In this document: positions 1-64,000 of the stretch, one piece after another
How the letters are laid out: each line of letters begins with the position of its first letter
Numbering within the stretch: position 1 is the first letter of the stretch
Notes under the pieces: generated by a model
The model's input: the letters and a program-made list of their open reading frames with translations, nothing else
What the model was told of the DNA's origin: nothing
Databases searched by the model: none
Position numbers and translations under genes: made by a program
Source of the DNA: Eledone cirrhosa
Lineage: Eukaryota
Reading direction: 5' to 3'
NCBI GenBank assembly: GCA_964016885.1
Contig: CAXHJY010000096.1
Coordinates: 558,001 to 622,000 of the forward strand
Length of the DNA: 64,000 bases

Positions 1-3000
1 AAAAAATCACTGGGATATTTGTAAAAAAAATCAGGGGGAGATAATTTGTAAAAAAAATCAAGGGGAGATAATTTCCAGCCGTCCAAAGAGAGATAATTTC
101 TAGCCGTCCAAGGGGAGATAATTTCCAGCCTTCCAAGGGGAGATAATTTTTTAAAAAATCAGGTGGAGATAATTTGTAAAAAAAATCAGTGGAAGATAAT
201 TTGTAAAAACAAAATCAAGGGCAGATAATTTCCAGCCGTCCAAGGGGAGATAATTTCCCGCCAGCCAAGGGAAGATAATATTTAAAAAAATCAGGCGGAG
301 ATAATTTGTAAAAAAAATCAGGGGGAGATAATTTGTAAAAAAATCAGGGGGAGATAATTTGTAAAAGAAAAATCAGGGGGAGATAATTTGTAAAAAAAAT
401 CAGGGGGAGATAATTTGTAAAAAAAATCAGGGGTAGATAATTTGTAAAAAAAAATCAGGGGGAGATAATTTGTAAAAAAAAATCAGGGGGAGATAATTTG
501 TAAAAAAAATCAAGGGGAGATAATTTGCAGCCGTCCAAGGGGAGATAATTTTCAGCCGTCCAAGGAGAGATAATTTCTAGCCGTCCAAGGGGAGATAATT
601 TCCAGCCGTCCAAGGGGAGATAATTTCCAGCCGTCCAAGGGGAGATAATTTTTTTTTAAAAATCAAGCGGAGATAATTTGTAAAAAAAAAATCAGGGGGA
701 GATAATTTGTAAAAAAAAATCAGGGGGAGATAATTTGTAAAAAAAAATCAGGGGGAGATAATTTGTAAAAAAAAATCAAGGGGAGATAATTTCCAGCCGT
801 CCAAGGGAAGATAATTTCCAGCCGTCCAAGGGAAGATAATTTCCAGCCCTTCAAGGGGCTATAATTTCCAGCGTCCAAGGGGAGATAATTTCCAGCCAGC
901 GAAGGGGAGATAATTTTTTTTTTAAAAATCAGGGGGAGATAATTTGTAAAAAAAATCAGGGGGAGATAATTTGTAAAAAAAAATCAGGGGGAGATAATTT
1001 GTAAAAAAAAATCAGGGGGAGATAATTTGTAAAAAAAATCAAGGGGAGATAATTTCAAGCCGTGCAAGGGGAGATAATTTCCAGCCGTCCAAGGGGAGAT
1101 AATTTACATCCTTCCAAGGGGAGATAATTTCCCGCCAGCCAAGGGAAGATAATTTTTAAAAAAATCAGGGGGAGATAATTTGTAAAAAAAAAATCAGGGG
1201 GAGATAATTTGTAAAAAAAAATCAAGGGGAGATAATTTGTAAAAAAAATCAGGGGGAGATAATTTGTAAAAAAAAAATCAGGGGGAGATAATTTGTAAAA
1301 AAAAATCAAGGGGAGATAATTTGTAAAAAAAATCAGGGGGAGATAATTTGTAAAAAAAATCAGGGGGAGATAATTTGTAAAAAAATCAGGGGGAGATAAT
1401 TTGTAAAAAAAAAATCAGGGGGAGATAATTTGTAAAAAAAATCAAGGGGAGATAATTTGTAAAAAAAAATCAGGGGGAGATAATTTGTAAAAAAAAATCA
1501 GGGGGAGATAATTTGTAAAAAAAATCAAGGGGAGATAATTTGCAGCCGTCCAAGGGGAGATAATTTTCAGCCGTCCAAGGAGAGATAATTTCTAGCCGTC
1601 CAAGGGGAGATAATTTCCAGCCGTCCAAGGGGAGATAATTTCCAGCCGTCCAAGGGGAGATAATTTTTTTTAAAAAATCAAGCGGAGATAATTTGTAAAA
1701 AAAAAATCAGGGGGAGATAATTTGTAAAAAAAAATCAGGGGGAGATAATTTGTAAAAAAAAATCAGGGGGAGATAATTTGTAAAAAAAATCAAGGGGAGA
1801 TAATTTCCAGCCGTCCAAGGGAAGATAATTTCCAGCCGTCCAAGGGAAGATAATTTCCAGCCCTCCAAGGGGCTATAATTTCCAGCGTCCAAGGGGAGAT
1901 AATTTCCAGCTAGCGAAGGGGAGATAATTTTTTTTTTTTAAATCAGGGGGAGATAATTTGTAAAAAAAATCAGGGGGAGATAATTTGTAAAAAAAAATCA
2001 GGGGGAGATAATTTGTAAAAAAAAATCAGGGGGAGATAATTTGTAAAAAAAATCAAAGGGAGATAATTTCCAGCCGTGCAAGGGGAGATAATTTCCAGCC
2101 GTCCAAGGGGAGATAATTTACATCCTTCCAAGGGGAGATAATTTCCAGCCGTCCAAGGGGAGATAATTTCCCGCCAGCCAAGGGAAGATAATTTTTAAAA
2201 AAATCAGGGGGAGATAATTTGTAAAAAATAAAAAAATCAAGGGGAGATAATTTGTAAAAAAAATCAGGGGGAGATAATTTGTAAAAAAAATCAGGGGGAG
2301 ATAATTTGTAAAAAAATCAGGGGGAGATAATTTGTAAAAAAAAAATCAGGGGGAGATAATTTGTAAAAAAAAATCAAGGGGAGATAATTTGTAAAAAAAA
2401 ATCAGGGGGAGATAATTTGTAAAAAAAATCAGGGGGAGATAATTTGTAAAAAAATCAGGGGGAGATAATTTGTAAAAAAAAATCAGGGGGAGATAATTTG
2501 TAAAAAAAAATCAGGGGGAGATAATTTGTAAAAAAAATCAGGGGGAGATAATTTGTAAAAAAAATCAGGGGGAGATAATTTGTAAAAAAAATCAAGGGGA
2601 GATAATTTGCAGCCGTCCAAGGGGAGATAATTTTCAGCCGTCCAAGGAGAGGTAATTTCTAGCCGTCCAAGGGGAGATAATTTCCAGCCGTCCAAGGGGA
2701 GATAATTTCCAGCCGTCCAAGGGGAGATAATTTTTTTTTAAAAATCAGGCGGAGATAATTTGTAAAAAAAAAAATCAGGGGGAGATAATTTGTAAAAAAA
2801 AATCAGGGGGAGATAATTTGTAAAAAAAAATCAGGGGGAGATAATTTGTAAAAAAAATCAAGGGGAGATAATTTCCAGCCGTCCAAGGGAAGATAATTTC
2901 CAGCCCTCCAAGGGGCTATAATTTCCAGCGTCCAAGGGGAGATAATTTCCAGCCAGCGAAGGGGAGATAATTTTTTTTTTAAAAATCATGCGGGGATAAT

Positions 3001-6000
3001 TTGTAAAAAAAATCAGGGGGAGATAATTTGTAAAAAAAATCAAGGGGAGATAATTTCCAGCCGTCCAAAGAGAGATAATTTCTAGCCGTCCAAGGGGAGA
3101 TAATTTCCAGCCGTCCAAGGGGAGATAATTTCCCGCCAGCCAAGGGAAGATAATTTTTTAAAAAATCAGGCGGAGATTGTAAAAAAAATCAGGGGGAGAT
3201 AATTTGTAAAAAAATCAGGGGGAGATAATTTGTAAAAAAAAAATCAGGGGGAGATAATTTGTAAAAAAAAATCAGAGGGAGGTAATTTGTAAAAAAAAAT
3301 CAGGGGGAGATAATTTGTAAAAAAAATCAGGGGTAGATAATTTGTAAAAAAAATCAGGGGGAGATAATTTGTAAAAAAAAATCAGGGGGAGATAATTTGT
3401 AAAAAAAATCAAGGGGAGATAATTTCCAGCCGTCCAAGGGAAGATAATTTCCAGCCGTCCAAGGGAAGATAATTTCCAGCCCTCCAAGGGGCTATAATTT
3501 CCAGCGTCCAAGGGGAGATAATTTCCAGCCAGCGAAGGGGAGATAATTTTTTTTTTAAAAATCAGGGGTAGATAATTTGTAAAAAAAATCAGGGGGAGAT
3601 AATTTGTAAAAAAAAATCAGGGGGAGATAATTTGTAAAAAAAATCAAGGGGAGATAATTTCCAGCCGTGCAAGGGGAGATAATTTCCAGCCGTCCAAGGG
3701 GAGATAATTTACATCCTTCCAAGGGGAGATAATTTCCAGCCGTCCAAGGGGAGATAATTTCCCGCCAGCCAAGGGAAGATAATTTTTAAAAAAATCAGGG
3801 GGAGATAATTTGTAAAAAAAATCAGGGGGAGATAATTTGTAAAAAAAATCAGGGGGAGATAATTTGTAAAAAAAATCAGGGGGAGATAATTTGTAAAAAA
3901 AAATCAGGGGGAGATAATTTGTAAAAAAAATCAGGGGGAGATAATTTGTAAAAAAAATCAGGGGGAGATAATTTGTAAAAAAAATCAAGGGGAGATAATT
4001 TGCAGCCGTCCAAGGGGAGATAATTTTCAGCCGTCCAAGGAGAGGTAATTTCTAGCCGTCCAAGGCGAGATAATTTCCAGCCGTCCAAGGGGAGATAATT
4101 TCCAGCCGTCCAAGGGGAGATAATTTTTTTAAAAAAATCAGGCGGAGATAATTTGTAAAAAAAAAATCAGGGGGAGATAATTTGTAAAAAAAAATCAGTG
4201 GGAGATAATTTGTAAAAAAAAATCAGGGGGAGATAATTTGTAAAAAAAATCAAGGGGAGATAATTTCCAGCCGTCCAAGGGAAGATAATTTCCAGCCCTC
4301 CAAGGGGCTATAATTTCCAGCGTCCAAGGGGAGATAATTTCCAGCCAGCGAAGGGGAGATAATTTTTTTTAAAAAAATCATGGGGGGATAATTTGTAAAA
4401 AAAAATCAGGGGGAGATAATTTGTAAAAAAAAATCAGGGGAGATAATTTGTAAAAAAAATCAGGGGGAGATAATTTGTAAAAAAAAATCAGGGGAAGATA
4501 ATTTGTAAAAAAAATCAAGCGGAGATAATTTGCAGCCGTCCAAGGGGAGATAATTTCCCGCCAGCCAAGGAGAGATAATATTTAAAAAAATCAGGCGGAG
4601 ATAATTTGTAAAAAAAATCAGGGGGAGATAATTTGTAAAAAAAATCAGGGGGAGATAATTTCCAGCCGTCCAAGGGGAGATAATTTTCAGCCGTCCAAGG
4701 AGAGGTAATTTCTAGCCGTCCAAGGGGAGATAATTTCCAGCCGTCCAAGGGAAGATAATTTCCAGCCCTCCAAGGGGCTATAATTTCCAGCGTCCAAGGG
4801 GAGATAATTTCCAGCCAGCGAAGGGGAGATAATTTTTTTTTTAAAAATCAGGGGGAGATAATTTGTAAAAAAAATCAGGGGGAGATAATTTGTAAAAAAA
4901 AATCAGGGGGAGATAATTTGTAAAAAAAAATCAGGGGGAGATAATTTGTAAAAAAAATCAAGGGGAGATAATTTCCAGCCGTGCAAGGGGAGATAATTTC
5001 CAGCCGTCCAAGGGGAGATAATTTACATCCTTCCAAGGGGAGATAATTTCCAGCCGTCCAAGGGGAGATAATTTCCCGCCAGCCAAGGGAAGATAATTTT
5101 TAAAAAAATCAGGGGGAGTTAATTTGTAAAAAAAAAATCAGGGGGAGATAATTTGTAAAAAAAAATCAAGGGGAGATAATTTGTAAAAAAAATCAGGGGG
5201 AGATAATTTGTAAAAAAAATCAGGGGGAGATAATTTGTAAAAAAATCAGGGGGAGATAATTTGTAAAAAAAAATCAGGGGGAGATAATTTGTAAAAAAAA
5301 ATCAAGGGGAGATAATTTGTAAAAAAAAATCAGGGGGAGATAATTTGTAAAAAAAAATCAGGGGGAGATAATTTGTAAAAAAAATCAAGGGGAGATAATT
5401 TGCAGCCGTCGAAGGGGAGATAATTTTCAGCCGTCCAAGGAGAGATAATTTCTAGCCGTCCAAGGGGAGATAATTTCCAGCCGTCCAAGGGGAGATAATT
5501 TCCAGCCGTCCAAGGGGAGATAATTTTTTTTAAAAAATCAAGCGGAGATAATTTGTAAAAAAAAAATCAGGGGGAGATAATTTGTAAAAAAAAATCAGGG
5601 GGAGATAATTTGTAAAAAAAAATCAGGGGGAGATAATTTGTAAAAAAAATCAAGGGGAGATAATTTCCAGCCGTCCAAGGGAAGATAATTTCCAGCCGTC
5701 CAAGGGAAGATAATTTCCAGCCCTCCAAGGGGCTATAATTTCCAGCGTCCAAGGGGAGATAATTTCCAGCCAGCGAAGGGGAGATAATTTTTTTTTATAA
5801 AATCAGGGGGAGATAATTTGTAAAAAAAATCAGGGGGAGATAATTTGTAAAAAAAAATCAGGGGGAGATAATTTGTAAAAAAAAATCAGGGGGAGATAAT
5901 TTGTAAAAAAAATCAAGGGGAGATTATTTCCAGCCGTGCAAGGGGAGATAATTTCCAGCCGTCCAAGGGGAGATAATTTACATCCTTCCAAGGGGAGATA

Positions 6001-7789
6001 ATTTCCAGCCGTCCAAGGGGAGATAATTTCCCGCCAGCCAAGGGAAGATAATTTTTAAAAAAATCAGGGGGAGATAATTTGTAAAAAAAAAATCAGGGGG
6101 AGATAATTTGTAAAAAAAAATCAAGGGGAGATAATTTGTAAAAAAAATCAGGGGGAGATAATTTGTAAAAAAAATCAGGGGGAGATAATTTGTAAAAAAA
6201 TCAGGGGGAGATAATTTGTAAAAAAAAAATCAGGGGGAGATAATTTGTAAAAAAAAATCAAGGGGAGATAATTTGTAAAAAAAAATCAGGGGGAGATAAT
6301 TTGTAAAAAAAATCAGGGGGAGATAATTTGTAAAAAAAATCAGGGGGAGATAATTTGTAAAAAAAAAATCAGGGGGAGATAATTTGTAAAAAAAAATCAG
6401 GGGGAGATAATTTGTAAAAAAAATCAGGGGGAGATAATTTGTAAAAAAAATCAGGGGGAGATAATTTGTAAAAAAAAATCAGGGGGAGATAATTTGTAAA
6501 AAAAATCAAGGGGAGATAATTTGCAGCCGTCCAAGGGGAGATAATTTTCAGCCGTCCAAGGAGAGATAATTTCTAGCCGTCCAAGGGGAGATAATTTCCA
6601 GCCGTCCAAGGGGAGATAATTTCCAGCCGTCCAAGGGGAGATAATTTTTTTTAAAAAATCAAGCGGAGATAATTTGTAAAAAAAAAATCAGGGGGAGATA
6701 ATTTGTAAAAAAAATCAAGGGGAGATAATTTCCAGCCGTCCAAGGGAAGATAATTTCCAGCCGTCCAAGGGAAGATAATTTCCAGCCCTCCAAGGGGCTA
6801 TAATTTCCAGCGTCCAAGGGGAGATAATTTCCAGCCAGCGAAGGGGAGATAATTTTTTTTTTTTAAATCAGGGGGAGATAATTTGTAAAAAAAATCAGGG
6901 GGAGATAATTTGTAAAAAAAATCAGGGGGAGATAATTTGTAAAAAAAATCAGGGGTAGATAATTTGTAAAAAAAATCAAGGGGAGATAATTTCCAGCCGT
7001 GCAAGGGGAGATAATTTCCAGCCGTCCAAGGGGAGATAATTTACATCCTTCCAAGGGGAGATAATTTCCAGCCGTCCAAGGGGAGATAATTTCCCGCCAG
7101 CCAAGGGAAGAAAATTTTTAAAAAAATCAGGGGGAGATAATTTGTAAAAAAAAAATCAGGGGGAGATAATTTGTAAAAAAAAATCAAGGGGAGATAATTT
7201 GTAAAAAAAATCAGGGGGAGATAATTTGTAAAAAAAATCAGGGGGAGATAATTTGTAAAAAAATCAGGGGGAGATAATTTGTAAAAAAAAAATCAGGGGG
7301 AGATAATTTGTAAAAAAAATCAAGGGGAGATAATTTGTAAAAAAAAATCAGGGGGAGATAATTTGTAAAAAAAATCAGGGGGAGATAATTTGTAAAAAAA
7401 TCAGGGGGAGATAATTTGTAAAAAAAAATCAGGGGGAGATAATTTGTAAAAAAAAATCAGGGGGAGATAATTTGTAAAAAAAATCAGGGGGAGATAATTT
7501 GTAAAAAAAATCAGGGGGAGATAATTTGTAAAAAAAATCAAGGGGAGATAATTTGCAGCCGTCCAAGGGGAGATAATTTTCAGCCGTCCAAGGAGAGGTA
7601 ATTTCTAGCCGTCCAAGGGGAGATAATTTCCAGCCGTCCAAGGGGAGATAATTTCCAGCCGTCCAAGGGGAGATAATTTTTTTTTAAAAATCAGGCGGAG
7701 ATAATTTGTAAAAAAAAAAATCAGGGGGAGATAATTTGTAAAAAAAAATCAGGGGGAGATAATTTGTAAAAAAAATCAAGGGGAGATAA

Positions 7790-9979: not shown

Positions 9980-11160
9980 CAAGGGGAGATAATTTCCAGC
10001 CGGCCAAGGGGAGATAATTTTCAGCCGTCCAAGGAGAGGTAATTTCTAGCCGTCCAAGGGGAGATAATTTCCAGCCGTCCAAGGGGAGATAATTTCCAGC
10101 CGTCCAAGGGGAGATAATTTCCAGCCGTCCAAGGAGACATATTTTCCAGCCGTCCAAGGAGAGGTAATTTCTAGCCGTCCTAGGGGAGATAAATTCCTGC
10201 CTCCAAGGGGAGATAATTTCCAGCCAGCCAAGGGGAGATAATTTGTAAAAAAATCAGGGGGAGATAATTTGTAAAAAAAATCAGGGGGAGATAATTTGTA
10301 AAAAAAAATCAGGGGGAGATAATTTGTAAAAAAAAATCAGGGGAGATAATTTGTAAAAAAAATCAGGGGAAGATAATTTGTAAAAAAAATCAAGGGGAGA
10401 TAATTTCCAGCCGTCCAAGGGGAGATAATTTTCAGCCGTCCAAGGAGAGGTAATTTCTAGCCGTCCAAGGAGAGATAATTTCCAGCCGTCCAAGGGGAGA
10501 TAATTTCCAGCCGTCCAAGGGGAGATGATTTTTTAAAAAAAATCAGGCGGAGATAAGTTGTTAAAAAAAATCAGGGGGAGATAATTTGTAAAAAAAAATC
10601 AGGGGGAGATAATTTGTAAAAAAAAATCAGGGGGAGATAATTTGTAAAAAAAATCAAGGGGAGATAATTTCCAGCCGTCCAAGGGAAGATAATTTCCAGC
10701 CCTCCAAGGGGCTATAATTTCCAGCGTCCAAGGGGAGATAATTTCCAGCCAGCGAAGGGGAGATAATTTTAAAAAAAAAATCACTGGGATATTTGTAAAA
10801 AAAATCAGGGGGAGATAATTTGTAAAAAAAATCAAGGGGAGATAATTTCCAGCCGTCCAAAGAGAGATAATTTCTAGCCGTCCAAGGGGAGATAATTTCC
10901 AGCCTTCCAAGGGGAGATAATTTTTTAAAAAATCAGGTGGAGATAATTTGTAAAAAAAATCAGTGGAAGATAATTTGTAAAAACAAAATCAAGGGCAGAT
11001 AATTTCCAGCCGTCCAAGGGGAGATAATTTCCCGCCAGCCAAGGGAAGATAATATTTAAAAAAATCAGGCGGAGATAATTTGTAAAAAAAATCAGGGGGA
11101 GATAATTTGTAAAAAAATCAGGGGGAGATAATTTGTAAAAGAAAAATCAGGGGGAGATAA
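9980..11160 (+). repeat. Divergent monomer island, copy 1 (includes a 10-monomer B block)
   Basis: Rare variants AAGGAGACATATTTTCC, AAATTCCTGCCTCC, GAGATGATT, GATAAGTTG, TCACTGGGATATTTG, TCAGTGGAAG and AAGGGCAGAT. Matches 42.25-43.4 kb at offset 32,263 (ORFs 10046/42309, 10281/42544, 10599/42862). Confidence 0.88.
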
Positions 11161-20100: not shown

Positions 20101-20309
20101 TTTTTAAAAAATCATGGGGGGATAATTTGTAAAAAAAAATCAGGGGGAGATAATTTGTAAAAAAAAATCAGGGGAGATAATTTGTAAAAAAAATCAGGGG
20201 GAGATAATTTGTAAAAAAAAATCAGGGGAAGATAATTTGTAAAAAAAATCAAGCGGAGATAATTTGCAGCCGTCCAAGGGGAGATAATTTCCCGCCAGCC
20301 AAGGAGAGA

Positions 20310-23300
20310 TAATATTTAAAAAAATCAGGCGGAGATAATTTGTAAAAAAAATCAGGGGGAGATAATTTCCAGCCGTCCAAGGGGAGATAATTTTCAGCCG
20401 TCCAAGGAGAGGTAATTTCTAGCCGTCCAAGGGGAGATAATTTCCAGCCGTCCAAGGGAAGATAATTTCCAGCCCTCCAAGGGGCTATAATTTCCAGCGT
20501 CCAAGGGGAGATAATTTCCAGCCAGCGAAGGGGAGATAATTTTTTTTTTTAAAATCAGGGGGAGATAATTTGTAAAAAAAATCAGGGGGAGATAATTTGT
20601 AAAAAAAAATCAGGGGGAGATAATTTGTAAAAAAAAATCAGGGGGAGATAATTTGTAAAAAAAATCAAGGGGAGATAATTTCCAGCCGTGCAAGGGGAGA
20701 TAATTTCCAGCCGTCCAAGGGGAGATAATTTACATCCTTCCAAGGGGAGATAATTTCCAGCCGTCCAAGGGGAGATAATTTCCCGCCAGCCAAGGGAAGA
20801 TAATTTTTAAAAAAATCAGGGGGAGATAATTTGTAAAAAAAAAATCAGGGGGAGATAATTTGTAAAAAAAAATCAAGGGGAGATAATTTGTAAAAAAAAT
20901 CAGGAGATAATTTGTAAAAAAAATCAGGGGGAGATAATTTGTAAAAAAATCAGGGGGAGATAATTTGTAAAAAAAAATCAGGGGGAGATAATTTGTAAAA
21001 AAAAATCAAGGGGAGATAATTTGTAAGAAAAAATCAGGGGGAGATAATTTGTAAAAAAAAATCAGGGGGAGATAATTTGTAAAAAAAATCAAGGGGAGAT
21101 AATTTGCAGCCGTCGAAGGGGAGATAATTTTCAGCCGTCCAAGGAGAGATAATTTCTAGCCGTCCAAGGGGAGATAATTTCCAGCCGTCCAAGGGGAGAT
21201 AATTTCCAGCCGTCCAAGGGGAGATAATTTTTTTTAAAAAATCAAGCGGAGATAATTTGTAAAAAAAAAATCAGGGGGAGATAATTTGTAAAAAAAAATC
21301 AGGGGGAGATAATTTGTAAAAAAAAATCAGGGGGAGATAATTTGTAAAAAAAATCAAGGGGAGATAATTTCCAGCCGTCCAAGGGAAGATAATTTCCAGC
21401 CGTCCAAGGGAAGATAATTTCCAGCCCTCCTAGGGGCTATAATTTCCAGCGTCCAAGGGGAGATAATTTCCAGCCAGCGAAGGGGAGATAATTTTTTTTT
21501 ATAAAATCAGGGGGAGATAATTTGTAAAAAAAAAATCAGGGGGAGATAATTTGTAAAAAAAAATCAAGGGGAGATAATTTGTAAAAAAAATCAGGGGGAG
21601 ATAATTTGTAAAAAAAATCAGGGGGAGATAATTTGTAAAAAAATCAGGGGGAGATAATTTGTAAAAAAAAAATCAGGGGGAGATAATTTGTAAAAAAAAA
21701 TCAAGGGGATATAATTTGTAAAAAAAAATCAGGGGGAGATAATTTGTAAAAAAAATCAGGGGGAGATAATTTGTAAAAAAAATCAGGGGGAGATAATTTG
21801 TAAAAAAAAAATCAGGGGGAGATAATTTGTAAAAAAAAATCAGGGGGAGATAATTTGTAAAAAAAATCAGGGGGAGATAATTTGTAAAAAAAATCAGGGG
21901 GAGATAATTTGTAAAAAAAAATCAGGGGGAGATAATTTGTAAAAAAAATCAAGGGGAGATAATTTGCAGCCGTCCAAGGGGAGATAATTTTCAGCCGTCC
22001 AAGGAGAGATAATTTCTAGCCGTCCAAGGGGAGATAATTTCCAGCCGTCCAAGGGGAGATAATTTCCAGCCGTCCAAGGGGAGATAATTTTTTTTAAAAA
22101 ATCAAGCGGAGATAATTTGTAAAAAAAAAATCAGGGGGAGATAATTTGTAAAAAAAATCAAGGGGAGATAATTTCCAGCCGTCCAAGGGAAGATAATTTC
22201 CAGCCGTCCAAGGGAAGATAATTTCCAGCCCTCCAAGGGGCTATAATTTCCAGCGTCCAAGGGGAGATAATTTCCAGCCAGCGAAGGGGAGATAATTTTT
22301 TTTTTTTAAATCAGGGGGAGATAATTTGTAAAAAAAATCAGGGGGAGATAATTTGTAAAAAAAAATCAGGGGGAGATAATTTGTAAAAAAAAATCAGGGG
22401 GAGATAATTTGTAAAAAAAATCAAGGGGAGATAATTTCCAGCCGTGCAAGGGGAGATAATTTCCAGCCGTCCAAGGGGAGATAATTTACATCCTTCCAAG
22501 GGGAGATAATTTCCAGCCGTCCAAGGGGAGATAATTTCCCGCCAGCCAAGGGAAGAAAATTTTTAAAAAAATCAGGGGGAGATAATTTGTAAAAAAAAAA
22601 TCAGGGGGAGATAATTTGTAAAAAAAAATCAAGGGGAGATAATTTGTAAAAAAAATCAGGGGGAGATAATTTGTAAAAAAAATCAGGGGGAGATAATTTG
22701 TAAAAAAATCAGGGGGAGATAATTTGTAAAAAAAAAATCAGGGGGAGATAATTTGTAAAAAAAAATCAAGGGGAGATAATTTGTAAAAAAAAATCAGGGG
22801 GAGATAATTTGTAAAAAAAATCAGGGGGAGATAATTTGTAAAAAAATCAGGGGGAGATAATTTGTAAAAAAAAATCAGGGGGAGATAATTTGTAAAAAAA
22901 AATCAGGGGGAGATAATTTGTAAAAAAAATCAGGGGGAGATAATTTGTAAAAAAAATCAGGGGGAGATAATTTGTAAAAAAAATCAAGGGGAGATAATTT
23001 GCAGCCGTCCAAGGGGAGATAATTTTCAGCCGTCCAAGGAGAGGTAATTTCTAGCCGTCCAAGGGGAGATAATTTCCAGCCGTCCAAGGGGAGATAATTT
23101 CGAGCCGTCCAAGGGGAGATAATTTTTTTTTAAAAATCAGGCGGAGATAATTTGTAAAAAAAAAAATCAGGGGGAGATAATTTGTAAAAAAAAATCAGGG
23201 GGAGATAATTTGTAAAAAAAAATCAGGGGGAGATAATTTGTAAAAAAAATCAAGGGGAGATAATTTCCAGCCGTCCAAGGGAAGATAATTTCCAGCCCTC

Positions 23301-42249: not shown

Positions 42250-44340
42250 AGATAATTTCCAGCCGTCCAAGGGGAGATAATTTTCAGCCGTCCAAGGAGA
42301 GGTAATTTCTAGCCGTCCAAGGGGAGATAATTTCCAGCCGTCCAAGGGGAGATAATTTCCAGCCGTCCAAGGGGAGATAATTTCCAGCCGTCCAAGGAGA
42401 CATATTTTCCAGCCGTCCAAGGAGAGGTAATTTCTAGCCGTCCAAGGGGAGATAAATTCCTGCCTCCAAGGGGAGATAATTTCCAGCCAGCCAAGGGGAG
42501 ATAATTTGTAAAAAAATCAGGGGGAGATAATTTGTAAAAAAAATCAGGGGGAGATAATTTGTAAAAAAAAATCAGGGGGAGATAATTTGTAAAAAAAAAT
42601 CAGGGGAGATAATTTGTAAAAAAAATCAGGTGGAGATAATTTGTAAAAAAAATCAAGGGGAGATAATTTCCAGCCGTCCAAGGGGAGATAATTTTCAATT
42701 GTCCAAGGAGAGGTAATTTCTAGCCGTCCAAGGAGAGATAATTTCCAGCCGTCCAAGGGGAGATAATTTCCAGCCGTCCAAGGGGAGATGATTTTTTAAA
42801 AAAAATCAGGCGGAGATAAGTTGTAAAAAAAAATCAGGGGGAGATAATTTGTAAAAAAAAATCAGGGGGAGATAATTTGTAAAAAAAAATCAGGGGGAGA
42901 TAATTTGTAAAAAAAATCAAGGGGAGATAATTTCCAGCCGTCCAAGGGAAGATAATTTCCAGCCCTCCAAGGGGCTATAATTTCCAGCGTCCAAGGGGAG
43001 ATAATTTCCAGCCAGCGAAGGGGAGATAATTTTTTTAAAAAAATCACTGGGATATTTGTAAAAAAAATCAGGGGGAGATAATTTGTAAAAAAAATCAAGG
43101 GGAGATAATTTACAGCCGTCCAAAGAGAGATAATTTCTAGCCGTCCAAGGGGAGATAATTTCCAGCCTTCCAAGGGGAGATAATTTTTTAAAAAATCAGG
43201 TGGAGATAATTTGTAAAAAAAATCAGTGGAAGATAATTTGTAAAAAGAAAATCAAGGGCAGATAATTTCCAGCCGTCCAAGGGGAGATAATTTCCCGCCA
43301 GCCAAGGGAAGATAATATTTAAAAAAATCAGGCGGAGATAATTTGTAAAAAAAATCAGGGGGAGATAATTTGTAAAAAAATCAGGGGGAGATAATTTGTA
43401 AAAGAAAAATCAGGGGGAGATAATTTGTAAAAAGAAAATCAAGGGGAGATAATTTCCAGCCGTCCAAGGGGAGATAATTTCCCGCCAGCCAAGGAGAGAT
43501 AATATTTAAAAAAATCAGGCGGAGATAATTTGTAAAAAAAATCAGGGGGAGATAATTTGTAAAAAAAATCAGGGGGAGATAATTTGTAAAAAAAATCAGG
43601 GGGAGATAATTTGTAAAAAAAAAATCAGGGGGAGATAATTTGTAAAAAAATCAAGGGGAGATAATTTCCAGCCGTCCAAGGGGAGATAATTTTCAGCCGT
43701 CCAAGGAGAGGTAATTTCTAGCCGTCCAAGGGGAGATAATTTCCAGCCGTCCAAGGGGAGATAATTTCCAGCCGTCCAACGGGAGATAATTTTAAAAAAA
43801 AAATCAGGCGGAGATAATTTGTAAACAAAAATCAGGGGGAGATAATTTGTAAAAAAAAATCAGGGGGAGATAATTTGTAAAAAAAAATCAGGGGGAGATA
43901 ATTTGTAAAAAAAATCAAGGGGAGATAATTTCCAGCCGTCCAAGGGGAGGTAATATCTAGCCATCCAAGGGGAGATAATTTCCAGCCGTCCAAGGGGAGA
44001 TAATTTCCAGCCGTCCAAGGGGAGATAATTTCCAGCCGTCCAAGGAGACATATTTTCCAGCCGTCCAAGGAGAGGTAATTTCTAGCCGTCCAAGGGGAGA
44101 TAAATTCCAGCCTCCAAGGGGAGATAATTTCCAGCCAGCCAAGGGGAGATAATTTGTAAAAAAATCAGGGGGAGATAATTTGTAAAAAAAATCAGGGGGA
44201 GATAATTTGTAACAAAAAATCAGGGGGAGATAATTTGTAAAAAAAAATCAGGGGGAGATAATTTGTAAAAAAAATCAGGGGGAGATAATTTGTAAAGAAA
44301 ATCAAGGGGAGTTAATTTCCAGCCGTCCAAGGGGAGATAA
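42250..44340 (+). repeat. Divergent monomer island, longest version (two long B blocks)
   Basis: Carries the same rare variants as 9,980-11,160, plus TTCAATTGTCC, GTAATATCTAGCCATCC, CCAACGGGAG, GTAAACAAAAA, GTAACAAAAAA and GTAAAGAAAA. Confidence 0.88.
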
Positions 44341-47300
44341 TTTTTTTTAAAAAATCAAGCGGAGATAATTTGTAAAAAAAAAATCAGGGGGAGATAATTT
44401 GTAAAAAAAAATCAGGGGGAGATAATTTGTAAAAAAAAATCAGGGGGAGATAATTTGTAAAAAAACATCAAGGGGAGATAATTTCCAGCCGTCCAAGGGA
44501 AGATAATTTCCAGCCGTCCAAGGGAAGATAATTTCCAGCCCTCCAAGGGGCTATAATTTCCAGCGTCCAAGGGGAGATAATTTCCAGCCAGCGAAGGGGA
44601 GATAATTTTTTTTTTAAAAATCAGGGGGAGATAATTTGTAAAAAAAATCAGGGGGAGATAATTTGTAAAAAAAAATCAGGGGGAGATAATTTGTAAAAAA
44701 AAATCAGGGGGAGATAATTTGTAAAAAAAATCAAGGGGAGATAATTTCCAGCCGTGCAAGGGGAGATAATTTCCAGCCGTCCAAGGGGAGATAATTTACA
44801 TCCTTCCAAGGGGAGATAATTTCCAGCCGTCCAAGGGGAGATAATTTCCCGCCAGCCAAGGGAAGATAATTTTTAAAAAAATCAGGGTGAGATAATTTGT
44901 AAAAAAAAAATCAGGGGGAGATAATTTGTAAAAAAAAATCAAGGGGAGATAATTTGTAAAAAAAATCAGGGGGAGATAATTTGTAAAAAAAATCAGGGGG
45001 AGATAATTTGTAAAAAAATCAGGGGGAGATAATTTGTAAAAAAAAATCAGGGGGAGATAATTTGTAAAAAAAAATCAAGGGGAGATAATTTGTAAAAAAA
45101 AATCAGGGGGAGATAATTTGTAAAAAAAATCAAGGGGAGATAATTTGCAGCCGTCGAAGGGGAGATAATTTTCAGCCGTCCAAGGAGAGATAATTTCTAG
45201 CCGTCCAAGGGGAGATAATTTCCAGCCGTCCAAGGGGAGATAATTTCCAGCCGTCCAAGGGGAGATAATTTTTTTTTAAAAATCAAGCGGAGATAATTTG
45301 TAAAAAAAAAATCAGGGGGAAATAATTTGTAAAAAAAAATCAGGGGGAGATAATTTGTAAAAAAAAATCAGGGGGAGATAATTTGTAAAAAAAATCAAGG
45401 GGAGATAATTTCCAGCCGTCCAAGGGAAGATAATTTCCAGCCGTCCAAGGGAAGATAATTTCCAGCCCTCCAAGGGGCTATAATTTCCAGCGTCCAAGGG
45501 GAGATAATTTCCAGCCAGCGAAGGGGAGATAATTTTTTTTTATAAAATCAGGGGGAGATAATTTGTAAAAAAAATCAGGGGGAGATAATTTGTAAAAAAA
45601 AATCAGGGGGAGATAATTTGTAAAAAAAAATCAGGGGGAGATAATTTGTAAAAAAAATCAAGGGGAGATAATTTCCAGCCGTGCAAGGGGAGATAATTTC
45701 CAGCCGTCCAAGGGGAGATAATTTACATCCTTCCAAGGGGAGATAATTTCCAGCCGTCCAAGGGGAGATAATTTCCCGCCAGCCAAGGGAAGATAATTTT
45801 TAAAAAAATCAGGGGGAGATAATTTGTAAAAAAAAAATCAGGGGGAGATAATTTGTAAAAAAAAATCAAGGGGAGATAATTTGTAAAAAAAATCAGGGGG
45901 AGATAATTTGTAAAAAAAATCAGGGGGAGATAATTTGTAAAAAAATCAGGGGGAGATAATTTGTAAAAAAAAAATCAGGGGGAGATAATTTGTAAAAAAA
46001 AATCAAGGGGAGATAATTTGTAAAAAAAAATCAGGGGGAGATAATTTGTAAAAAAAATCAGGGGGAGATAATTTGTAAAAAAAATCAGGGGGAGATAATT
46101 TGTAAAAAAAAATCAGGGGGAGATAATTTGTAAAAAAAAATCAGGGGGAGATAATTTGTAAAAAAAATCAGGGGGAGATAATTTGTAAAAAAAATCAGGG
46201 GGAGATAATTTGTAAAAAAAATCAAGGGGAGATAATTTGCAGCCGTCCAAGGGGAGATAATTTTCAGCCGTCCAAGGAGAGATAATATTTAAAAAAATCA
46301 GGCGGAGATAATTTGTAAAAAAAATCAGGGGGAGATAATTTGTAAAAAAAATCAGGGGGAGATAATTTCCAGCCGTCCAAGGGGAGATAATTTTCAGCCG
46401 TCCAAGGAGAGGTAATTTCTAGCCGTCCAAGGGGAGATAATTTCCAGCCGTCCAAGGGAAGATAATTTCCAGCCCTCCAAGGGGCTATAATTTCCAGCGT
46501 CCAAGGGGAGATAATTTCCAGCCAGCGAAGGGGAGATAATTTTTTTTTTAAAAATCAGGGGGAGATAATTTGTAAAAAAAATCAGGGGGAGATAATTTGT
46601 AAAAAAAAATCAGGGGGAGATAATTTGTAAAAAAAAATCAGGGGGAGATAATTTGTAAAAAAAATCAAGGGGAGATAATTTCCAGCCGTGCAAGGGGAGA
46701 TAATTTCCAGCCGTCCAAGGGGAGATAATTTACATCCTTCCAAGGGGAGATAATTTCCAGCCGTCCAAGGGGAGATAATTTCCCGCCAGCCAAGGGAAGA
46801 TAATTTTTAAAAAAATCAGGGGGAGATAATTTGTAAAAAAAAAATCAGGGGGAGATAATTTGTAAAAAAAAATCAAGGGGAGATAATTTGTAAAAAAAAT
46901 CAGGAGGAGATAATTTGTAAAAAAAATCAGGGGGAGATAATTTGTAAAAAAATCAGGGGGAGATAATTTGTAAAAAAAAATCAGGGGGAGATAATTTGTA
47001 AAAAAAAATCAAGGGGAGATAATTTGTAAGAAAAAATCAGGGGGAGATAATTTGTAAAAAAAAATCAGGGGGAGATAATTTGTAAAAAAAATCAAGGGGA
47101 GATAATTTGCAGCCGTCGAAGGGGAGATAATTTTCAGCCGTCCAAGGAGAGATAATTTCTAGCCGTCCAAGGGGAGATAATTTCCAGCCGTCCAAGGGGA
47201 GATAATTTCCAGCCGTCCAAGGGGAGATAATTTTTTTTAAAAAATCAAGCGGAGATAATTTGTAAAAAAAAAATCAGGGGGAGATAATTTGTAAAAAAAA

Positions 47301-50300
47301 ATCAGGGGGAGATAATTTGTAAAAAAAAATCAGGGGGAGATAATTTGTAAAAAAAATCAAGGGGAGATAATTTCCAGCCGTCCAAGGGAAGATAATTTCC
47401 AGCCGTCCAAGGGAAGATAATTTCCAGCCCTCCTAGGGGCTATAATTTCCAGCGTCCAAGGGGAGATAATTTCCAGCCAGCGAAGGGGAGATAATTTTTT
47501 TTTATAAAATCAGGGGGAGATAATTTGTAAAAAAAAAATCAGGGGGAGATAATTTGTAAAAAAAAATCAAGGGGAGATAATTTGTAAAAAAAATCAGGGG
47601 GAGATAATTTGTAAAAAAAATCAGGGGGAGATAATTTGTAAAAAAATCAGGGGGAGATAATTTGTAAAAAAAAAATCAGGGGGAGATAATTTGTAAAAAA
47701 AAATCAAGGGGATATAATTTGTAAAAAAAAATCAGGGGGAGATAATTTGTAAAAAAAATCAGGGGGAGATAATTTGTAAAAAAAATCAGGGGGAGATAAT
47801 TTGTAAAAAAAAAATCAGGGGGAGATAATTTGTAAAAAAAAATCAGGGGGAGATAATTTGTAAAAAAAATCAGGGGGAGATAATTTGTAAAAAAAATCAG
47901 GGGGAGATAATTTGTAAAAAAAAATCAGGGGGAGATAATTTGTAAAAAAAATCAAGGGGAGATAATTTGCAGCCGTCCAAGGGGAGATAATTTTCAGCCG
48001 TCCAAGGAGAGATAATTTCTAGCCGTCCAAGGGGAGATAATTTCCAGCCGTCCAAGGGGAGATAATTTCCAGCCGTCCAAGGGGAGATAATTTTTTTTAA
48101 AAAATCAAGCGGAGATAATTTGTAAAAAAAAAATCAGGGGGAGATAATTTGTAAAAAAAATCAAGGGGAGATAATTTCCAGCCGTCCAAGGGAAGATAAT
48201 TTCCAGCCGTCCAAGGGAAGATAATTTCCAGCCCTCCAAGGGGCTATAATTTCCAGCGTCCAAGGGGAGATAATTTCCAGCCAGCGAAGGGGAGATAATT
48301 TTTTTTTTTTAAATCAGGGGGAGATAATTTGTAAAAAAAATCAGGGGGAGATAATTTGTAAAAAAAAATCAGGGGGAGATAATTTGTAAAAAAAAATCAG
48401 GGGGAGATAATTTGTAAAAAAAATCAAGGGGAGATAATTTCCAGCCGTGCAAGGGGAGATAATTTCCAGCCGTCCAAGGGGAGATAATTTACATCCTTCC
48501 AAGGGGAGATAATATTTAAAAAAATCAGGCGGAGATAATTTGTAAAAAAAATCAGTGGAAGATAATTTGTAAAAAGAAAATCAAGGGCAGATAATTTCCA
48601 GCCGTCCAAGGGGAGATAATTTCCCGCCAGCCAAGGGAAGATAATATTTAAAAAAATCAGGCGGAGATAATTTGTAAAAAAAATCAGGGGGAGATAATTT
48701 GTAAAAAAATCAGGGGGAGATAATTTGTAAAAGAAAAATCAGGGGGAGATAATTTGTAAAAAGAAAATCAAGGGGAGATAATTTCCAGCCGTCCAAGGGG
48801 AGATAATTTCCCGCCAGCCAAGGAGAGATAATATTTAAAAAAATCAGGCGGAGATAATTTGTAAAAAAAATCAGGGGGAGATAATTTGTAAAAAAAATCA
48901 GGGGGAGATAATTTGTAAAAAAAATCAGGGGGAGATAATTTGTAAAAAAAAAATCAGGGGGAGATAATTTGTAAAAAAATCAAGGGGAGATAATTTCCAG
49001 CCGTCCAAGGGGAGATAATTTTCAGCCGTCCAAGGAGAGGTAATTTCTAGCCGTCCAAGGGGAGATAATTTCCAGCCGTCCAAGGGGAGATAATTTCCAG
49101 CCGTCCAACGGGAGATAATTTTAAAAAAAAAATCAGGCGGAGATAATTTGTAAACAAAAATCAGGGGGAGATAATTTGTAAAAAAAAATCAGGGGGAGAT
49201 AATTTGTAAAAAAAAATCAGGGGGAGATAATTTGTAAAAAAAATCAAGGGGAGATAATTTCCAGCCGTCCAAGGGGAGGTAATATCTAGCCATCCAAGGG
49301 GAGATAATTTCCAGCCGTCCAAGGGGAGATAATTTCCAGCCGTCCAAGGGGAGATAATTTCCAGCCGTCCAAGGAGACATATTTTCCAGCCGTCCAAGGA
49401 GAGGTAATTTCTAGCCGTCCAAGGGGAGATAAATTCCAGCCTCCAAGGGGAGATAATTTCCAGCCAGCCAAGGGGAGATAATTTGTAAAAAAATCAGGGG
49501 GAGATAATTTGTAAAAAAAATCAGGGGGAGATAATTTGTAACAAAAAATCAGGGGGAGATAATTTGTAAAAAAAAATCAGGGGGAGATAATTTGTAAAAA
49601 AAATCAGGGGGAGATAATTTGTAAAGAAAATCAAGGGGAGTTAATTTCCAGCCGTCCAAGGGGAGATAATTTTTTTTAAAAAATCAAGCGGAGATAATTT
49701 GTAAAAAAAAAATCAGGGGGAGATAATTTGTAAAAAAAAATCAGGGGGAGATAATTTGTAAAAAAAAATCAGGGGGAGATAATTTGTAAAAAAAATCAAG
49801 GGGAGATAATTTCCAGCCGTCCAAGGGAAGATAATTTCCAGCCGTCCAAGGGAAGATAATTTCCAGCCCTCCAAGGGGCTATAATTTCCAGCGTCCAAGG
49901 GGAGATAATTTCCAGCCAGCGAAGGGGAGATAATTTTTTTTTTAAAAATCAGGGGGAGATAATTTGTAAAAAAAATCAGGGGGAGATAATTTGTAAAAAA
50001 AAATCAGGGGGAGATAATTTGTAAAAAAAAATCAGGGGGAGATAATTTGTAAAAAAAATCAAGGGGAGATAATTTCCAGCCGTGCAAGGGGAGATAATTT
50101 CCAGCCGTCCAAGGGGAGATAATTTACATCCTTCCAAGGGGAGATAATTTCCAGCCGTCCAAGGGGAGATAATTTCCCGCCAGCCAAGGGAAGATAATTT
50201 TTAAAAAAATCAGGGTGAGATAATTTGTAAAAAAAAAATCAGGGGGAGATAATTTGTAAAAAAAAATCAAGGGGAGATAATTTGTAAAAAAAATCAGGGG

Positions 50301-53300
50301 GAGATAATTTGTAAAAAAAATCAGGGGGAGATAATTTGTAAAAAAATCAGGGGGAGATAATTTGTAAAAAAAAATCAGGGGGAGATAATTTGTAAAAAAA
50401 AATCAAGGGGAGATAATTTGTAAAAAAAAATCAGGGGGAGATAATTTGTAAAAAAAATCAAGGGGAGATAATTTGCAGCCGTCGAAGGGGAGATAATTTT
50501 CAGCCGTCCAAGGAGAGATAATTTCTAGCCGTCCAAGGGGAGATAATTTCCAGCCGTCCAAGGGGAGATAATTTCCAGCCGTCCAAGGGGAGATAATTTT
50601 TTTTTAAAAATCAAGCGGAGATAATTTGTAAAAAAAAAATCAGGGGGAGATAATTTGTAAAAAAAAATCAGGGGGAGATAATTTGTAAAAAAAAATCAGG
50701 GGGAGATAATTTGTAAAAAAAATCAAGGGGAGATAATTTCCAGCCGTCCAAGGGAAGATAATTTCCAGCCGTCCAAGGGAAGATAATTTCCAGCCCTCCA
50801 AGGGGCTATAATTTCCAGCGTCCAAGGGGAGATAATTTCCAGCCAGCGAAGGGGAGATAATTTTTTTTTATAAAATCAGGGGGAGATAATTTGTAAAAAA
50901 AATCAGGGGGAGATAATTTGTAAAAAAAAATCAGGGGGAGATAATTTGTAAAAAAAAATCAGGGGGAGATAATTTGTAAAAAAAATCAAGGGGAGATAAT
51001 TTCCAGCCGTGCAAGGGGAGATAATTTCCAGCCGTCCAAGGGGAGATAATTTACATCCTTCCAAGGGGAGATAATTTCCAGCCGTCCAAGGGGAGATAAT
51101 TTCCCGCCAGCCAAGGGAAGATAATTTTTAAAAAAATCAGGGGGAGATAATTTGTAAAAAAAAAATCAGGGGGAGATAATTTGTAAAAAAAAATCAAGGG
51201 GAGATAATTTGTAAAAAAAATCAGGGGGAGATAATTTGTAAAAAAAATCAGGGGGAGATAATTTGTAAAAAAATCAGGGGGAGATAATTTGTAAAAAAAA
51301 AATCAGGGGGAGATAATTTGTAAAAAAAAATCAAGGGGAGATAATTTGTAAAAAAAAATCAGGGGGAGATAATTTGTAAAAAAAATCAGGGGGAGATAAT
51401 TTGTAAAAAAAATCAGGGGGAGATAATTTGTAAAAAAAAATCAGGGGGAGATAATTTGTAAAAAAAAATCAGGGGGAGATAATTTGTAAAAAAAATCAGG
51501 GGGAGATAATTTGTAAAAAAAATCAGGGGGAGATAATTTGTAAAAAAAATCAAGGGGAGATAATTTGCAGCCGTCCAAGGGGAGATAATTTTCAGCCGTC
51601 CAAGGAGAGATAATATTTAAAAAAATCAGGCGGAGATAATTTGTAAAAAAAATCAGGGGGAGATAATTTGTAAAAAAAATCAGGGGGAGATAATTTCCAG
51701 CCGTCCAAGGGGAGATAATTTTCAGCCGTCCAAGGAGAGGTAATTTCTAGCCGTCCAAGGGGAGATAATTTCCAGCCGTCCAAGGGAAGATAATTTCCAG
51801 CCCTCCAAGGGGCTATAATTTCCAGCGTCCAAGGGGAGATAATTTCCAGCCAGCGAAGGGGAGATAATTTTTTTTTTAAAAATCAGGGGGAGATAATTTG
51901 TAAAAAAAATCAGGGGGAGATAATTTGTAAAAAAAAATCAGGGGGAGATAATTTGTAAAAAAAAATCAGGGGGAGATAATTTGTAAAAAAAATCAAGGGG
52001 AGATAATTTCCAGCCGTGCAAGGGGAGATAATTTCCAGCCGTCCAAGGGGAGATAATTTACATCCTTCCAAGGGGAGATAATTTCCAGCCGTCCAAGGGG
52101 AGATAATTTCCCGCCAGCCAAGGGAAGATAATTTTTAAAAAAATCAGGGGGAGATAATTTGTAAAAAAAAAATCAGGGGGAGATAATTTGTAAAAAAAAA
52201 TCAAGGGGAGATAATTTGTAAAAAAAATCAGGAGGAGATAATTTGTAAAAAAAATCAGGGGGAGATAATTTGTAAAAAAATCAGGGGGAGATAATTTGTA
52301 AAAAAAAATCAGGGGGAGATAATTTGTAAAAAAAAATCAAGGGGAGATAATTTGTAAGAAAAAATCAGGGGGAGATAATTTGTAAAAAAAAATCAGGGGG
52401 AGATAATTTGTAAAAAAAATCAAGGGGAGATAATTTGCAGCCGTCGAAGGGGAGATAATTTTCAGCCGTCCAAGGAGAGATAATTTCTAGCCGTCCAAGG
52501 GGAGATAATTTCCAGCCGTCCAAGGGGAGATAATTTCCAGCCGTCCAAGGGGAGATAATTTTTTTTAAAAAATCAAGCGGAGATAATTTGTAAAAAAAAA
52601 ATCAGGGGGAGATAATTTGTAAAAAAAAATCAGGGGGAGATAATTTGTAAAAAAAAATCAGGGGGAGATAATTTGTAAAAAAAATCAAGGGGAGATAATT
52701 TCCAGCCGTCCAAGGGAAGATAATTTCCAGCCGTCCAAGGGAAGATAATTTCCAGCCCTCCTAGGGGCTATAATTTCCAGCGTCCAAGGGGAGATAATTT
52801 CCAGCCAGCGAAGGGGAGATAATTTTTTTTTATAAAATCAGGGGGAGATAATTTGTAAAAAAAAAATCAGGGGGAGATAATTTGTAAAAAAAAATCAAGG
52901 GGAGATAATTTGTAAAAAAAATCAGGGGGAGATAATTTGTAAAAAAAATCAGGGGGAGATAATTTGTAAAAAAATCAGGGGGAGATAATTTGTAAAAAAA
53001 AAATCAGGGGGAGATAATTTGTAAAAAAAAATCAAGGGGATATAATTTGTAAAAAAAAATCAGGGGGAGATAATTTGTAAAAAAAATCAGGGGGAGATAA
53101 TTTGTAAAAAAAATCAGGGGGAGATAATTTGTAAAAAAAAAATCAGGGGGAGATAATTTGTAAAAAAAAATCAGGGGGAGATAATTTGTAAAAAAAATCA
53201 GGGGGAGATAATTTGTAAAAAAAATCAGGGGGAGATAATTTGTAAAAAAAAATCAGGGGGAGATAATTTGTAAAAAAAATCAAGGGGAGATAATTTGCAG

Positions 53301-53830
53301 CCGTCCAAGGGGAGATAATTTTCAGCCGTCCAAGGAGAGATAATTTCTAGCCGTCCAAGGGGAGATAATTTCCAGCCGTCCAAGGGGAGATAATTTCCAG
53401 CCGTCCAAGGGGAGATAATTTTTTTTAAAAAATCAAGCGGAGATAATTTGTAAAAAAAAAATCAGGGGGAGATAATTTGTAAAAAAAATCAAGGGGAGAT
53501 AATTTCCAGCCGTCCAAGGGAAGATAATTTCCAGCCGTCCAAGGGAAGATAATTTCCAGCCCTCCAAGGGGCTATAATTTCCAGCGTCCAAGGGGAGATA
53601 ATTTCCAGCCAGCGAAGGGGAGATAATTTTTTTTTTTTAAATCAGGGGGAGATAATTTGTAAAAAAAATCAGGGGGAGATAATTTGTAAAAAAAAATCAG
53701 GGGGAGATAATTTGTAAAAAAAAATCAGGGGGAGATAATTTGTAAAAAAAATCAAGGGGAGATAATTTCCAGCCGTGCAAGGGGAGATAATTTCCAGCCG
53801 TCCAAGGGGAGATAATTTACATCCTTCCAA
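43200..53830 (+). repeat. 5,328-5,329 bp tandem duplication (junction ~48,510)
   Basis: TCAGTGGAAG at 43,223/48,552 and CCTAGGGG at 47,434/52,762. ORFs 43832/49161, 45312/50640 and 46264/51592 match. Confidence 0.92.
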
Positions 53831-62800: not shown

Positions 62801-64000
62801 TCAGGGGGAGATAATTTGTAAAAAAAAATCAGGGGGAGATAATTTGTAAAAAAAATCAGGGGGAGATAATTTGTAAAAAAAATTAAGGGGAGATAATTTT
62901 CAGCCGTCCAAGGGAAGATAATTTCCAGCCCTCCAAGGGGCTATAATTTCCAGCGTCCAAGGGGAGATAATTTCCAGCCAGCGAAGGGGAGATAATTTTT
63001 TTTTTTTAAATCATGCGGGGATAATTTGTAAAAAAAATCAGGGGGAGATAATTTGTAAAAAAAATCAAGGGGAGATAATTTCCAGCCGTCCAAAGAGAGA
63101 TAATTTCTAGCCGTCCAAGGGGAGATAATTTCCAGCCGTCCAAGGGGAGATAATTTCCCGCCAGCCAAAGGAAGATAATTTTTTAAAAAATCAGGCGGAG
63201 ATTGTAAAAAAAATCAGGGGGAGATAATTTGTAAAAAAAATCAGGGGGAGATAATTTGTAAAAAAAATCAGGGGGAGATAATTTGTAAAAAAAATCAGGG
63301 GGAGATAATTTGTAAAAAAATCAGGGGGAGATAATTTGTAAAAAAAAAATCAGGGGGAGATAATTTGTAAAAAAAATCAAGGGGAGATAATTTCCAGCCG
63401 TCCAAGGGAAGATAATTTCCAGCCGTCCAAGGGAAGATAATTTCCAGCCCTCCAAGGGGCTATAATTTCCAGCGTCCAAGGGGAGATAATTTCCAGCCAG
63501 CGAAGGGGAGATAATTTTTTTTTTAAAAATCAGGGGGAGATAATTTGTAAAAAAAATCAGGGGGAGATAATTTGTAAAAAAAAATCAGGGGGAGATAATT
63601 TGTAAAAAAAAATCAGGGGGAGATAATTTGTAAAAAAAAATCAGGGGGAGATAATTTGTAAAAAAAATCAAGGGGAGATAATTTCCAGCCGTCCAAGGGA
63701 AGATAATTTCCAGCCGTCCAAGGGAAGATAATTTCCAGCCCTCCAAGGGGCTATAATTTCCAGCGTCCAAGGGGAGATAATTTCCAGCCAGCGAAGGGGA
63801 GATAATTTTTTTTTTAAAAATCAGGGGGAGATAATTTGTAAAAAAAATCAGGGGGAGATAATTTGTAAAAAAAAATCAGGGGGAGATAATTTGTAAAAAA
63901 AAATCAGGGGGAGATAATTTGTAAAAAAAATCAAGGGGAGATAATTTCCAGCCGTGCAAGGGGAGATAATTTCCAGCCGTCCAAGGGGAGATAATTTACA
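51610..64000 (+). repeat. Second copy of the 31.3 kb-offset segment; contains ~1.7 units of the 1,821 bp repeat and the restart of the ~7.1 kb repeat
   Basis: ORFs 22875/54206, 24867/56196, 27619/58948, 31641/62941 and 32285/63585 match. ORFs 61135/62427 are offset by 1,292 and 56487/63585 by 7,098. Confidence 0.86.

Follow-up and report, generated by a model that had tools for sequence, protein, structure and literature searches.

Human alpha satellite combines two kinds of monomer, distinguished by a single short region, and its chromosome-specific higher-order variants have spread between chromosomes in waves, with an older relative left at the array edge (PMC9549924). In Meloidogyne, short centromeric repeats join a common stretch to different remainders and form higher-order arrays, and a 19-bp box that is 86% invariant across divergent families and species overlaps CenH3 (PMC13404089). 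An atlas preprint counts 32 of 263 families with a monomer under 100 bp; families of this kind have a sub-nucleosomal monomer, heterogeneous higher-order repeats and a within-chromosome similarity above that between chromosomes, and in some genomes families are segregated on different chromosomes (bioRxiv 10.64898/2026.09.17.752431). In Eleutherine, the satellites Ebusat1/4 are limited to the large chromosomes of a two-size karyotype (PMC6791338). Here we describe a satellite that shares features with each of these systems and fills a stretch of 64,000 nucleotides of Eledone cirrhosa DNA (assembly GCA_964016885.1, contig CAXHJY010000096.1, positions 558,001 to 622,000 of the forward strand), hereafter called the window.

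As in alpha satellite, two monomer forms, one with a GC-rich and one with an A-rich tail, differ in one region and follow an inherited order. A sister layer, older by inference, lies at the edge of one array on chromosome C1, where it is also interleaved with the young layer at 251.77-252.08 Mb. No sequence relation to alpha satellite is claimed: the monomer measures 25-30 bp rather than 171 bp, the differing part takes up 40% of it, the higher-order repeats are irregular, no binding protein is known, and the family occupies 4 of 28 chromosomes. Unlike the Meloidogyne box, the core shared by the two forms mutates at the rate expected from its base composition, and in the sister layer its variation exceeds that of the tail. 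Ebusat1/4 differ in belonging to a plant, in lying interstitially rather than at centromeres and in being single-monomer families. Our search of the literature, with Dfam, Repbase and nt outside its scope, returned no description of a cephalopod centromere repeat or of this repeat; five satellite motifs used as sequence strings had no match there, and the portions available of PMC12682272, PMC12988792, PMC9957312 and PMC5646656 do not describe it. The main text of the atlas preprint, as far as available, mentions neither octopus, cephalopod nor mollusc, and its supplementary family table could bear on novelty. We regard the element as a satellite of a known general type, not described in the literature searched, which is notable for its location and its preserved probable ancestor rather than for a selected core.

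The reading that we favour, and consider probable, is that this two-form satellite of 25-30-bp monomers, with 16 bp shared by descent, represents young centromeric or pericentromeric DNA of the four giant chromosomes. Judged from position and array structure, an association of the arrays with centromeres is likewise probable; that the satellite is the actual CENP-A template is conceivable but doubtful. This reading predicts that the centromere DNA of the giants differs from that of the small chromosomes within one animal, and it makes the satellite a concrete target for fluorescence in situ hybridisation and CENP-A mapping.

Organisation of the array

The whole window (1..64000) is satellite on the plus strand, as are all features given below. 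It forms part of a 2.92-Mb unplaced contig (C123:558001-622000). Each of the 23 samples taken from the contig beyond its first ~1.35 kb is this satellite, in the same orientation; the first 1,349 bp belong to another satellite. A reading of the window made from its letters alone (the sequence-only reading) had described a conserved core followed by one of two dissimilar tails, alternating in blocks and arrayed about 2,400 times. Splitting at the core recovered this arrangement, with 2,418 cores and 2,417 monomers, mostly of 25-30 bp (range 23-33 bp). The A tail is GT(A)7-11TCA, with runs of 7, 8, 9, 10 and 11 bases occurring 75, 483, 393, 115 and 22 times, the GC tail is CCAGCCGTCCA, and monomers of the two kinds are grouped in blocks. 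Two corrections apply to the two-state picture. Besides 1,255 A-tail and 962 GC-tail monomers there are 200 of a third, junction form, in which the core's T run is lengthened and which is located after GC blocks (168-203 copies under other classifiers); and the stretch common to both forms is 16 bp long, not 13 (CARGGGGAGATAATTT, ~60% of the monomer). The exact 13-mer GGGGAGATAATTT is present in 1,836 copies (76% of the 2,418), against 0.005 expected from base composition, and exact AGATAATTT in 2,197 (91%). Uniformity within the contig is highest in the window, with the exact 9-bp core at 0.91, against 0.74-0.93 in 23 other samples.

Representative monomers are found at 223..247 (25 bp, the commonest of the GC-tail form) and 299..325 (27 bp, A-tail form with A8, one among ~1,255). 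A typical higher-order unit, at 784..1020, consists of five GC-tail monomers (124 bp), one T-run junction monomer and then A-tail monomers; its GC cassette occurs 34 times among the 208 blocks of the window. At 1122..1172, a block-terminal GC monomer with AG at positions 16-17, as in the terminal monomer of the sister layer, is followed by its T-run junction monomer. The order of the forms is fixed: A-tail block, linker switch, GC block, terminal variant, T-run form. Across 496 kb of samples (18,893 monomers, with a longest interruption of 53 bp), 1,252 of the 1,259 T-form monomers come after a GC monomer, and of 1,563 A monomers with a GC-type linker end 1,373 stand before one. Monomer order is inherited, not random.

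A regular long-range period was not found in the window, where the 208 blocks hold 40 distinct GC cassettes and the autocorrelation peaks at duplication offsets only. The higher-order repeats are irregular and are turned over through near-identical 5-8 kb duplications: 13..6101 recurs at 10787-16874 with 1 of 231 monomers different, 20333..28124 recurs at 51661-59453 with 5 of 294 different, and a tandem 5.3-kb duplication spans 43204..53810 with 2 of 200 different. Because these duplications preserve the lengths of the A runs, the latter are real and copied. Over the window and all samples, C-to-T decay at the CpG of the GC tail is almost absent (1 and 0 variants against 1,486 exact copies), which suggests low methylation of the array in the germ line.

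Chromosomal location

The host genome of 3.0 Gb comprises four giant chromosomes, C1-C4 (443, 416, 379 and 379 Mb), and 24 smaller ones; C28 measures 136 Mb and C29 49 kb (lengths were read for 15 of the 28 chromosome-scale scaffolds). Exact matches genome-wide number 92,758 for the GC-tail pattern and 48,071 for the A8-tail pattern, with none for controls. Scaled by the 496 kb of samples, the family totals 14.2-17.7 Mb, or ~0.5-0.6% of the genome. Its distribution over chromosomes was taken from matches to rare-variant patterns. Two complete lists, with 69 matches, place 2 on C1, 23 on C2, 11 on C3, 13 on C4, 20 on four unplaced contigs and none on C5-C28; in two further lists, the matches listed cover only chromosomes before C5. 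The arrays lie at 251.2-252.2 and 279.16-279.3 of 443 Mb on C1 (0.57 of its length), at 245.6-251.0 of 416 Mb on C2 (0.60), at 162.7-169.1 of 379 Mb on C3 (0.44) and at 205.6-206.4 of 379 Mb on C4 (0.54). Taken as continuous between samples, these spans of ~16 Mb predict 82,400 of the 92,758 matches (~89%).

Sharing of 100-mers is found mostly within a chromosome, and each giant carries its own variant set. For the window, the shared fraction is 0.42 against C1 and no more than 0.08 against C2-C4; C898 and C1058 lean to C3. The far end of the contig that holds the window contains 96% of the 100-mers found at C1:279.2 Mb (279.156 Mb), which starts at a gap, and the contig probably belongs to C1. 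Gapless joins were found on C1, on C2 (two) and in C123, those on C1 and C2 running into unique DNA; among the 11 array ends examined, none on C3 or C4 was gapless. A DNA-similarity search of the own genome skips repeats and so returned nothing for the satellite. In public sequencing runs, the fraction of sampled words present was 0.59-0.82 in four runs of organism A (possibly the source, and for that reason not independent), 0.23-0.33 in organisms B-D and 0.05-0.17 in others; these values may reflect relatives or cross-contamination, and they were not used.

These arrays show several features looked for in centromere candidates. They are long and contiguous (a 2.9-Mb contig that is satellite in all its samples, and 122 kb unbroken on C4), they are highly homogeneous, and similarity within chromosomes exceeds that between them. 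As to one zone per chromosome, the family was observed on 4 of 28 chromosomes, with two sites on C1 and 0 of 69 matches on C5-C28. Of the functions proposed by the sequence-only reading, which were centromere-, telomere- or iteron-like, the first is made plausible by the position of the arrays in the assembly. A telomere-like or subtelomeric repeat was rejected: none of 14 sampled chromosome starts carries the satellite, C10 starts with the hexamer telomere repeat TTAGGG, and the arrays are interstitial (the arthropod pentamer telomere had 0 matches). An iteron-like role is unsupported for interstitial arrays in a 3-Gb animal genome. We also dropped the minus-then-plus polarity of the arrays on C1-C3 as a sign of centric fusion, as the orientations meet gaps, and a derivation from a 30-chromosome ancestor by four fusions, as 28 chromosome-scale scaffolds do not fit the sum.

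The sister layer and the origin of the A tail

The sister layer occupies 105 kb at the right edge of the C1 array (C1:252.102-252.207 Mb). It continues without a gap into unique C1 DNA, and at two places seen it is joined in register with the young layer. Its monomers are of the 25-bp GC-tail type, differ from those of the young layer at one position and have a self-complementary tail; A tails are absent. AT-rich spacers break up the layer; one motif detects 99 of them, and the 76 that were extracted have a median length of 295 bp and are 86% AT. Each spacer starts directly after one core and ends directly before the next. Two direct repeats of ~35 bp are held within the spacers. All 41 genome-wide matches to the spacer motif lie in C1:251.77-252.21 Mb; the spacer was rejected as a dispersed transposon, having no copies outside this single locus.

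In the young layer, positions 16-17 read AG in 1,162 of 1,787 block-terminal monomers but in 23 of 5,768 inner ones, and in the sister layer in 52 of 129 terminal monomers before a spacer but in 96 of 2,256 inner ones, copies being non-independent in both cases. The monomer that precedes the AT-rich part thus has the same two-base state in both layers, which supports, without proving, a descent of the A-tail block from the spacer. In the history that we propose, an array of GC-tail monomers only would have gained an AT-rich spacer, which was then amplified. Collapse of a spacer between two cores to a 12-15-bp A/T tail would have produced the second monomer, and this new A-tail monomer would have multiplied by slippage and unequal exchange. 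The composite would finally have reached the three remaining giants from C1 and become distinct on each, where it may serve as bulk centromeric or centromere-flanking heterochromatin DNA, not by way of a selected 13-bp site. The preserved sister layer would then be a rare snapshot of a second monomer type arising inside a satellite.

Variation of the core

When variation is weighted by copies, the core of GC-tail monomers in the young layer varies less than the tail (2.6% vs 9.2%), as the sequence-only reading had stated for both tails; the A tail, however, carries no more substitutions than the core. We counted rare mutation events on distinct monomers instead of copies, using an A-run length of 8.41 bases and leaving out 1,139 of 8,717 GC-class and 465 of 8,914 A-class monomers (indels or many changes) together with all T-form monomers. 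Uncorrected, events per base in the GC class are 0.64 times as frequent in the core as in the tail (p 0.005). A/T sites, however, mutate at 0.52 of the G/C rate and make up 8 of the 9 bases of the 9-bp core, and for this reason the lower variation of the core vanishes within base classes: the core/tail ratio in the GC class is 0.74 at A/T sites (CI 0.42-1.34, p 0.30) and 1.02 at G/C sites (p 0.88). The ratio is 1.03 in the A class (CI 0.77-1.37) and 0.97 for the 13-bp core (p 0.8), and pooled core events number 124 against 127 expected. A comparison of common with rare variants gave no significant core deficit (odds ratios 1.19 and 1.45, pooled 1.33, CI 0.82-2.17). A second, context-based count, with fewer events and no base-class correction, kept the same ordering (GC class, core 0.76 vs tail 1.12; A class, 1.10 vs 1.40-1.46).

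In the sister layer, divergence is 8.2% in the core against 6.4% in the tail (2,387 monomers), whereas event counts lean slightly the opposite way (9.0 vs 11.8 per base, p 0.065). No constraint on the core was detected, and up to about twofold constraint is compatible with the data. In neither the corrected event counts nor the variation of the sister layer does the core stand out as a conserved box. The sequence-only reading had itself named a core no more conserved than the tails as a refuting outcome, and, as far as this condition could be checked, the selected protein-binding site that it suggested is not borne out. Common ancestry is the likely source of the shared core; in a two-form satellite, descent and biased mutation are enough to produce one.

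Structural properties of the tails

The suggestion that the tails switch local DNA mechanics holds in so far as the blocks differ in GC and A-tract content, but the A-tracts are unphased and the length of GC blocks is variable outside the window. No helical phasing was found, AA/TT power being 0.15 of the mean at 10.3-10.7 bp and 0.08-0.15 at 10-11.2 bp, and an intrinsically curved satellite with phased A-tracts was rejected for lack of a 10-11-bp period. Because the A-tracts are unphased, any mechanical effect would be one of stiffness and nucleosome exclusion rather than bending. Poly-dA tracts disfavour nucleosomes, and the A-tract blocks are predicted to do so. A nucleosome-sized GC block was also rejected: 179 of 208 blocks in the window hold 4-5 monomers, but blocks elsewhere range from 1 to 16. 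No stable fold was found in window blocks (fold z -0.8 to 0.8), and the young layer showed neither phased bending nor hairpins. In the sister layer, folds are more stable than in shuffled sequence (z -2.4, -4.4). A ribozyme or structured-RNA satellite was likewise unsupported, Rfam giving 0 matches in four satellite samples, the sister-layer locus included.

Alternative explanations

Several observations weigh against the centromeric reading. The family lacks the distribution of a pan-chromosomal centromere repeat, as 24 of the 28 chromosomes showed no sign of it, and the two arrays on C1 are separated by 27 Mb; the 69 matches fall into ~20 independent groups, so that arrays of tens of kb on small chromosomes could have been missed. 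A neighbouring satellite, such as one of 227 bp on C2, could be the real CENP-A template. The arrays might also play no part in centromeres and be interstitial heterochromatin, formed by a selfish satellite that grew in low-recombination zones of the giants, for instance at old fusion points. We consider this unlikely. It would account for the absence from the 24 small chromosomes in the complete match lists and for zones that are patchworks of many satellites, some CAA/ACC-rich like chromosome starts, and it has a parallel in Eleutherine, where interstitial satellites occur on the large pair only and another family marks all centromeres (PMC6791338). It accords less well with one mid-chromosome zone per giant (two on C1) that is homogeneous, uninterrupted and rich in chromosome-specific variants, features that are scored for centromere candidates in the atlas (bioRxiv 10.64898/2026.09.17.752431); and the one interstitial telomere-like array examined on C1 lies 33 Mb away and is single-stranded in the 3 of 3 samples holding it. 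Confinement to four chromosomes could further be an artefact of scaffolding, pure-satellite contigs from many chromosomes having been placed into the giants. Seven of the 11 array ends lie at 200-N scaffold gaps, so that scaffolding underlies both the assignment of arrays to C3 and C4 and every orientation; the 1.1-Mb contig C1499, judged from its own samples, is unlike each of the four variant sets (0.07 at most) and could derive from a fifth chromosome; and the C2 sample at 251.0 Mb resembles C4 (0.28). Such an artefact is nevertheless most unlikely, given the gapless joins to unique DNA on C1 and C2 and the variant sets shared by samples across each giant, which amount to about five sets and not 28. 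An extension of the centromeric reading, which we think unlikely, envisages two centromere classes: the C1-born satellite would have taken over the centromeres of the four giants only, and the alternation of GC- and AT-rich blocks, retained through a complete change of the AT-rich part, would be under selection as a template for nucleosome patterning and not as a binding motif.

Different accounts can likewise be given of the monomer itself. A core selected as a protein-binding box and kept while tails are swapped, as for the 19-bp box of Meloidogyne, would fit the 9-bp core being 3.5 times less variable than the GC tail in copy-weighted counts of the young layer, the 5 core states against 13 tail states that reach 1%, and the three different inserts (GC tail, A tail, spacer) between identical boundaries. 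The core also contains AGATAA, which we take to match the GATA-factor consensus. The equality of core and tail rates within base classes argues against such a box, as do the core variant A3G, present in 11.9% of GC monomers, and the sister layer, where the core is the more variable part and one of its positions reaches 28.5%; we regard a selected box as improbable. The proposed descent of the A tail has its own difficulties: the direction from sister to young layer, and with it the sister layer as ancestor, is inferred, the step from spacer to A tail draws on position and one shared variant, and the A tail aligns to the spacer no better than to shuffles (p 0.26-0.61). Alternatively, the A tail could have been captured from a 13-bp A-run satellite, or could be what is left of a retro-insertion with the 'core' as target duplication. 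The 13-bp family adjoins arrays on C2 and C3 (C3: 168.0 to 168.75 Mb), both gapless C2 ends run into its decayed form, and 11 bases match exactly between it and the A tail. This match, however, is no better than that to shuffles (p 0.39-0.66), an in-register hybrid junction, sought in one direction only, had 0 matches genome-wide, and the spacer motif is confined to one locus, without dispersed copies. Both origins appear very unlikely, and we retain descent from the spacer.

Neighbouring sequences

Satellites of 13, 23, 33, 37, 59, 227 bp and more pack around the arrays, and further flanking repeats have units of 9, 7/28, 92, ~9 and ~89 bp. The 227-bp satellite is found at C2:245.0 Mb, 0.6 Mb from the C2 array, in copies that are 98% identical and have 0 matches in Rfam. 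On C1, a degenerate interstitial telomere-repeat array of at least 240 kb (217.84-218.08 Mb) runs in one orientation. Five haemocyanin gene copies form two clusters, at C1:173.75-173.91 Mb and C26:21.93-22.02 Mb, with seven mollusc haemocyanin domains per gene, as is usual in octopods; the C26 pair is inverted.

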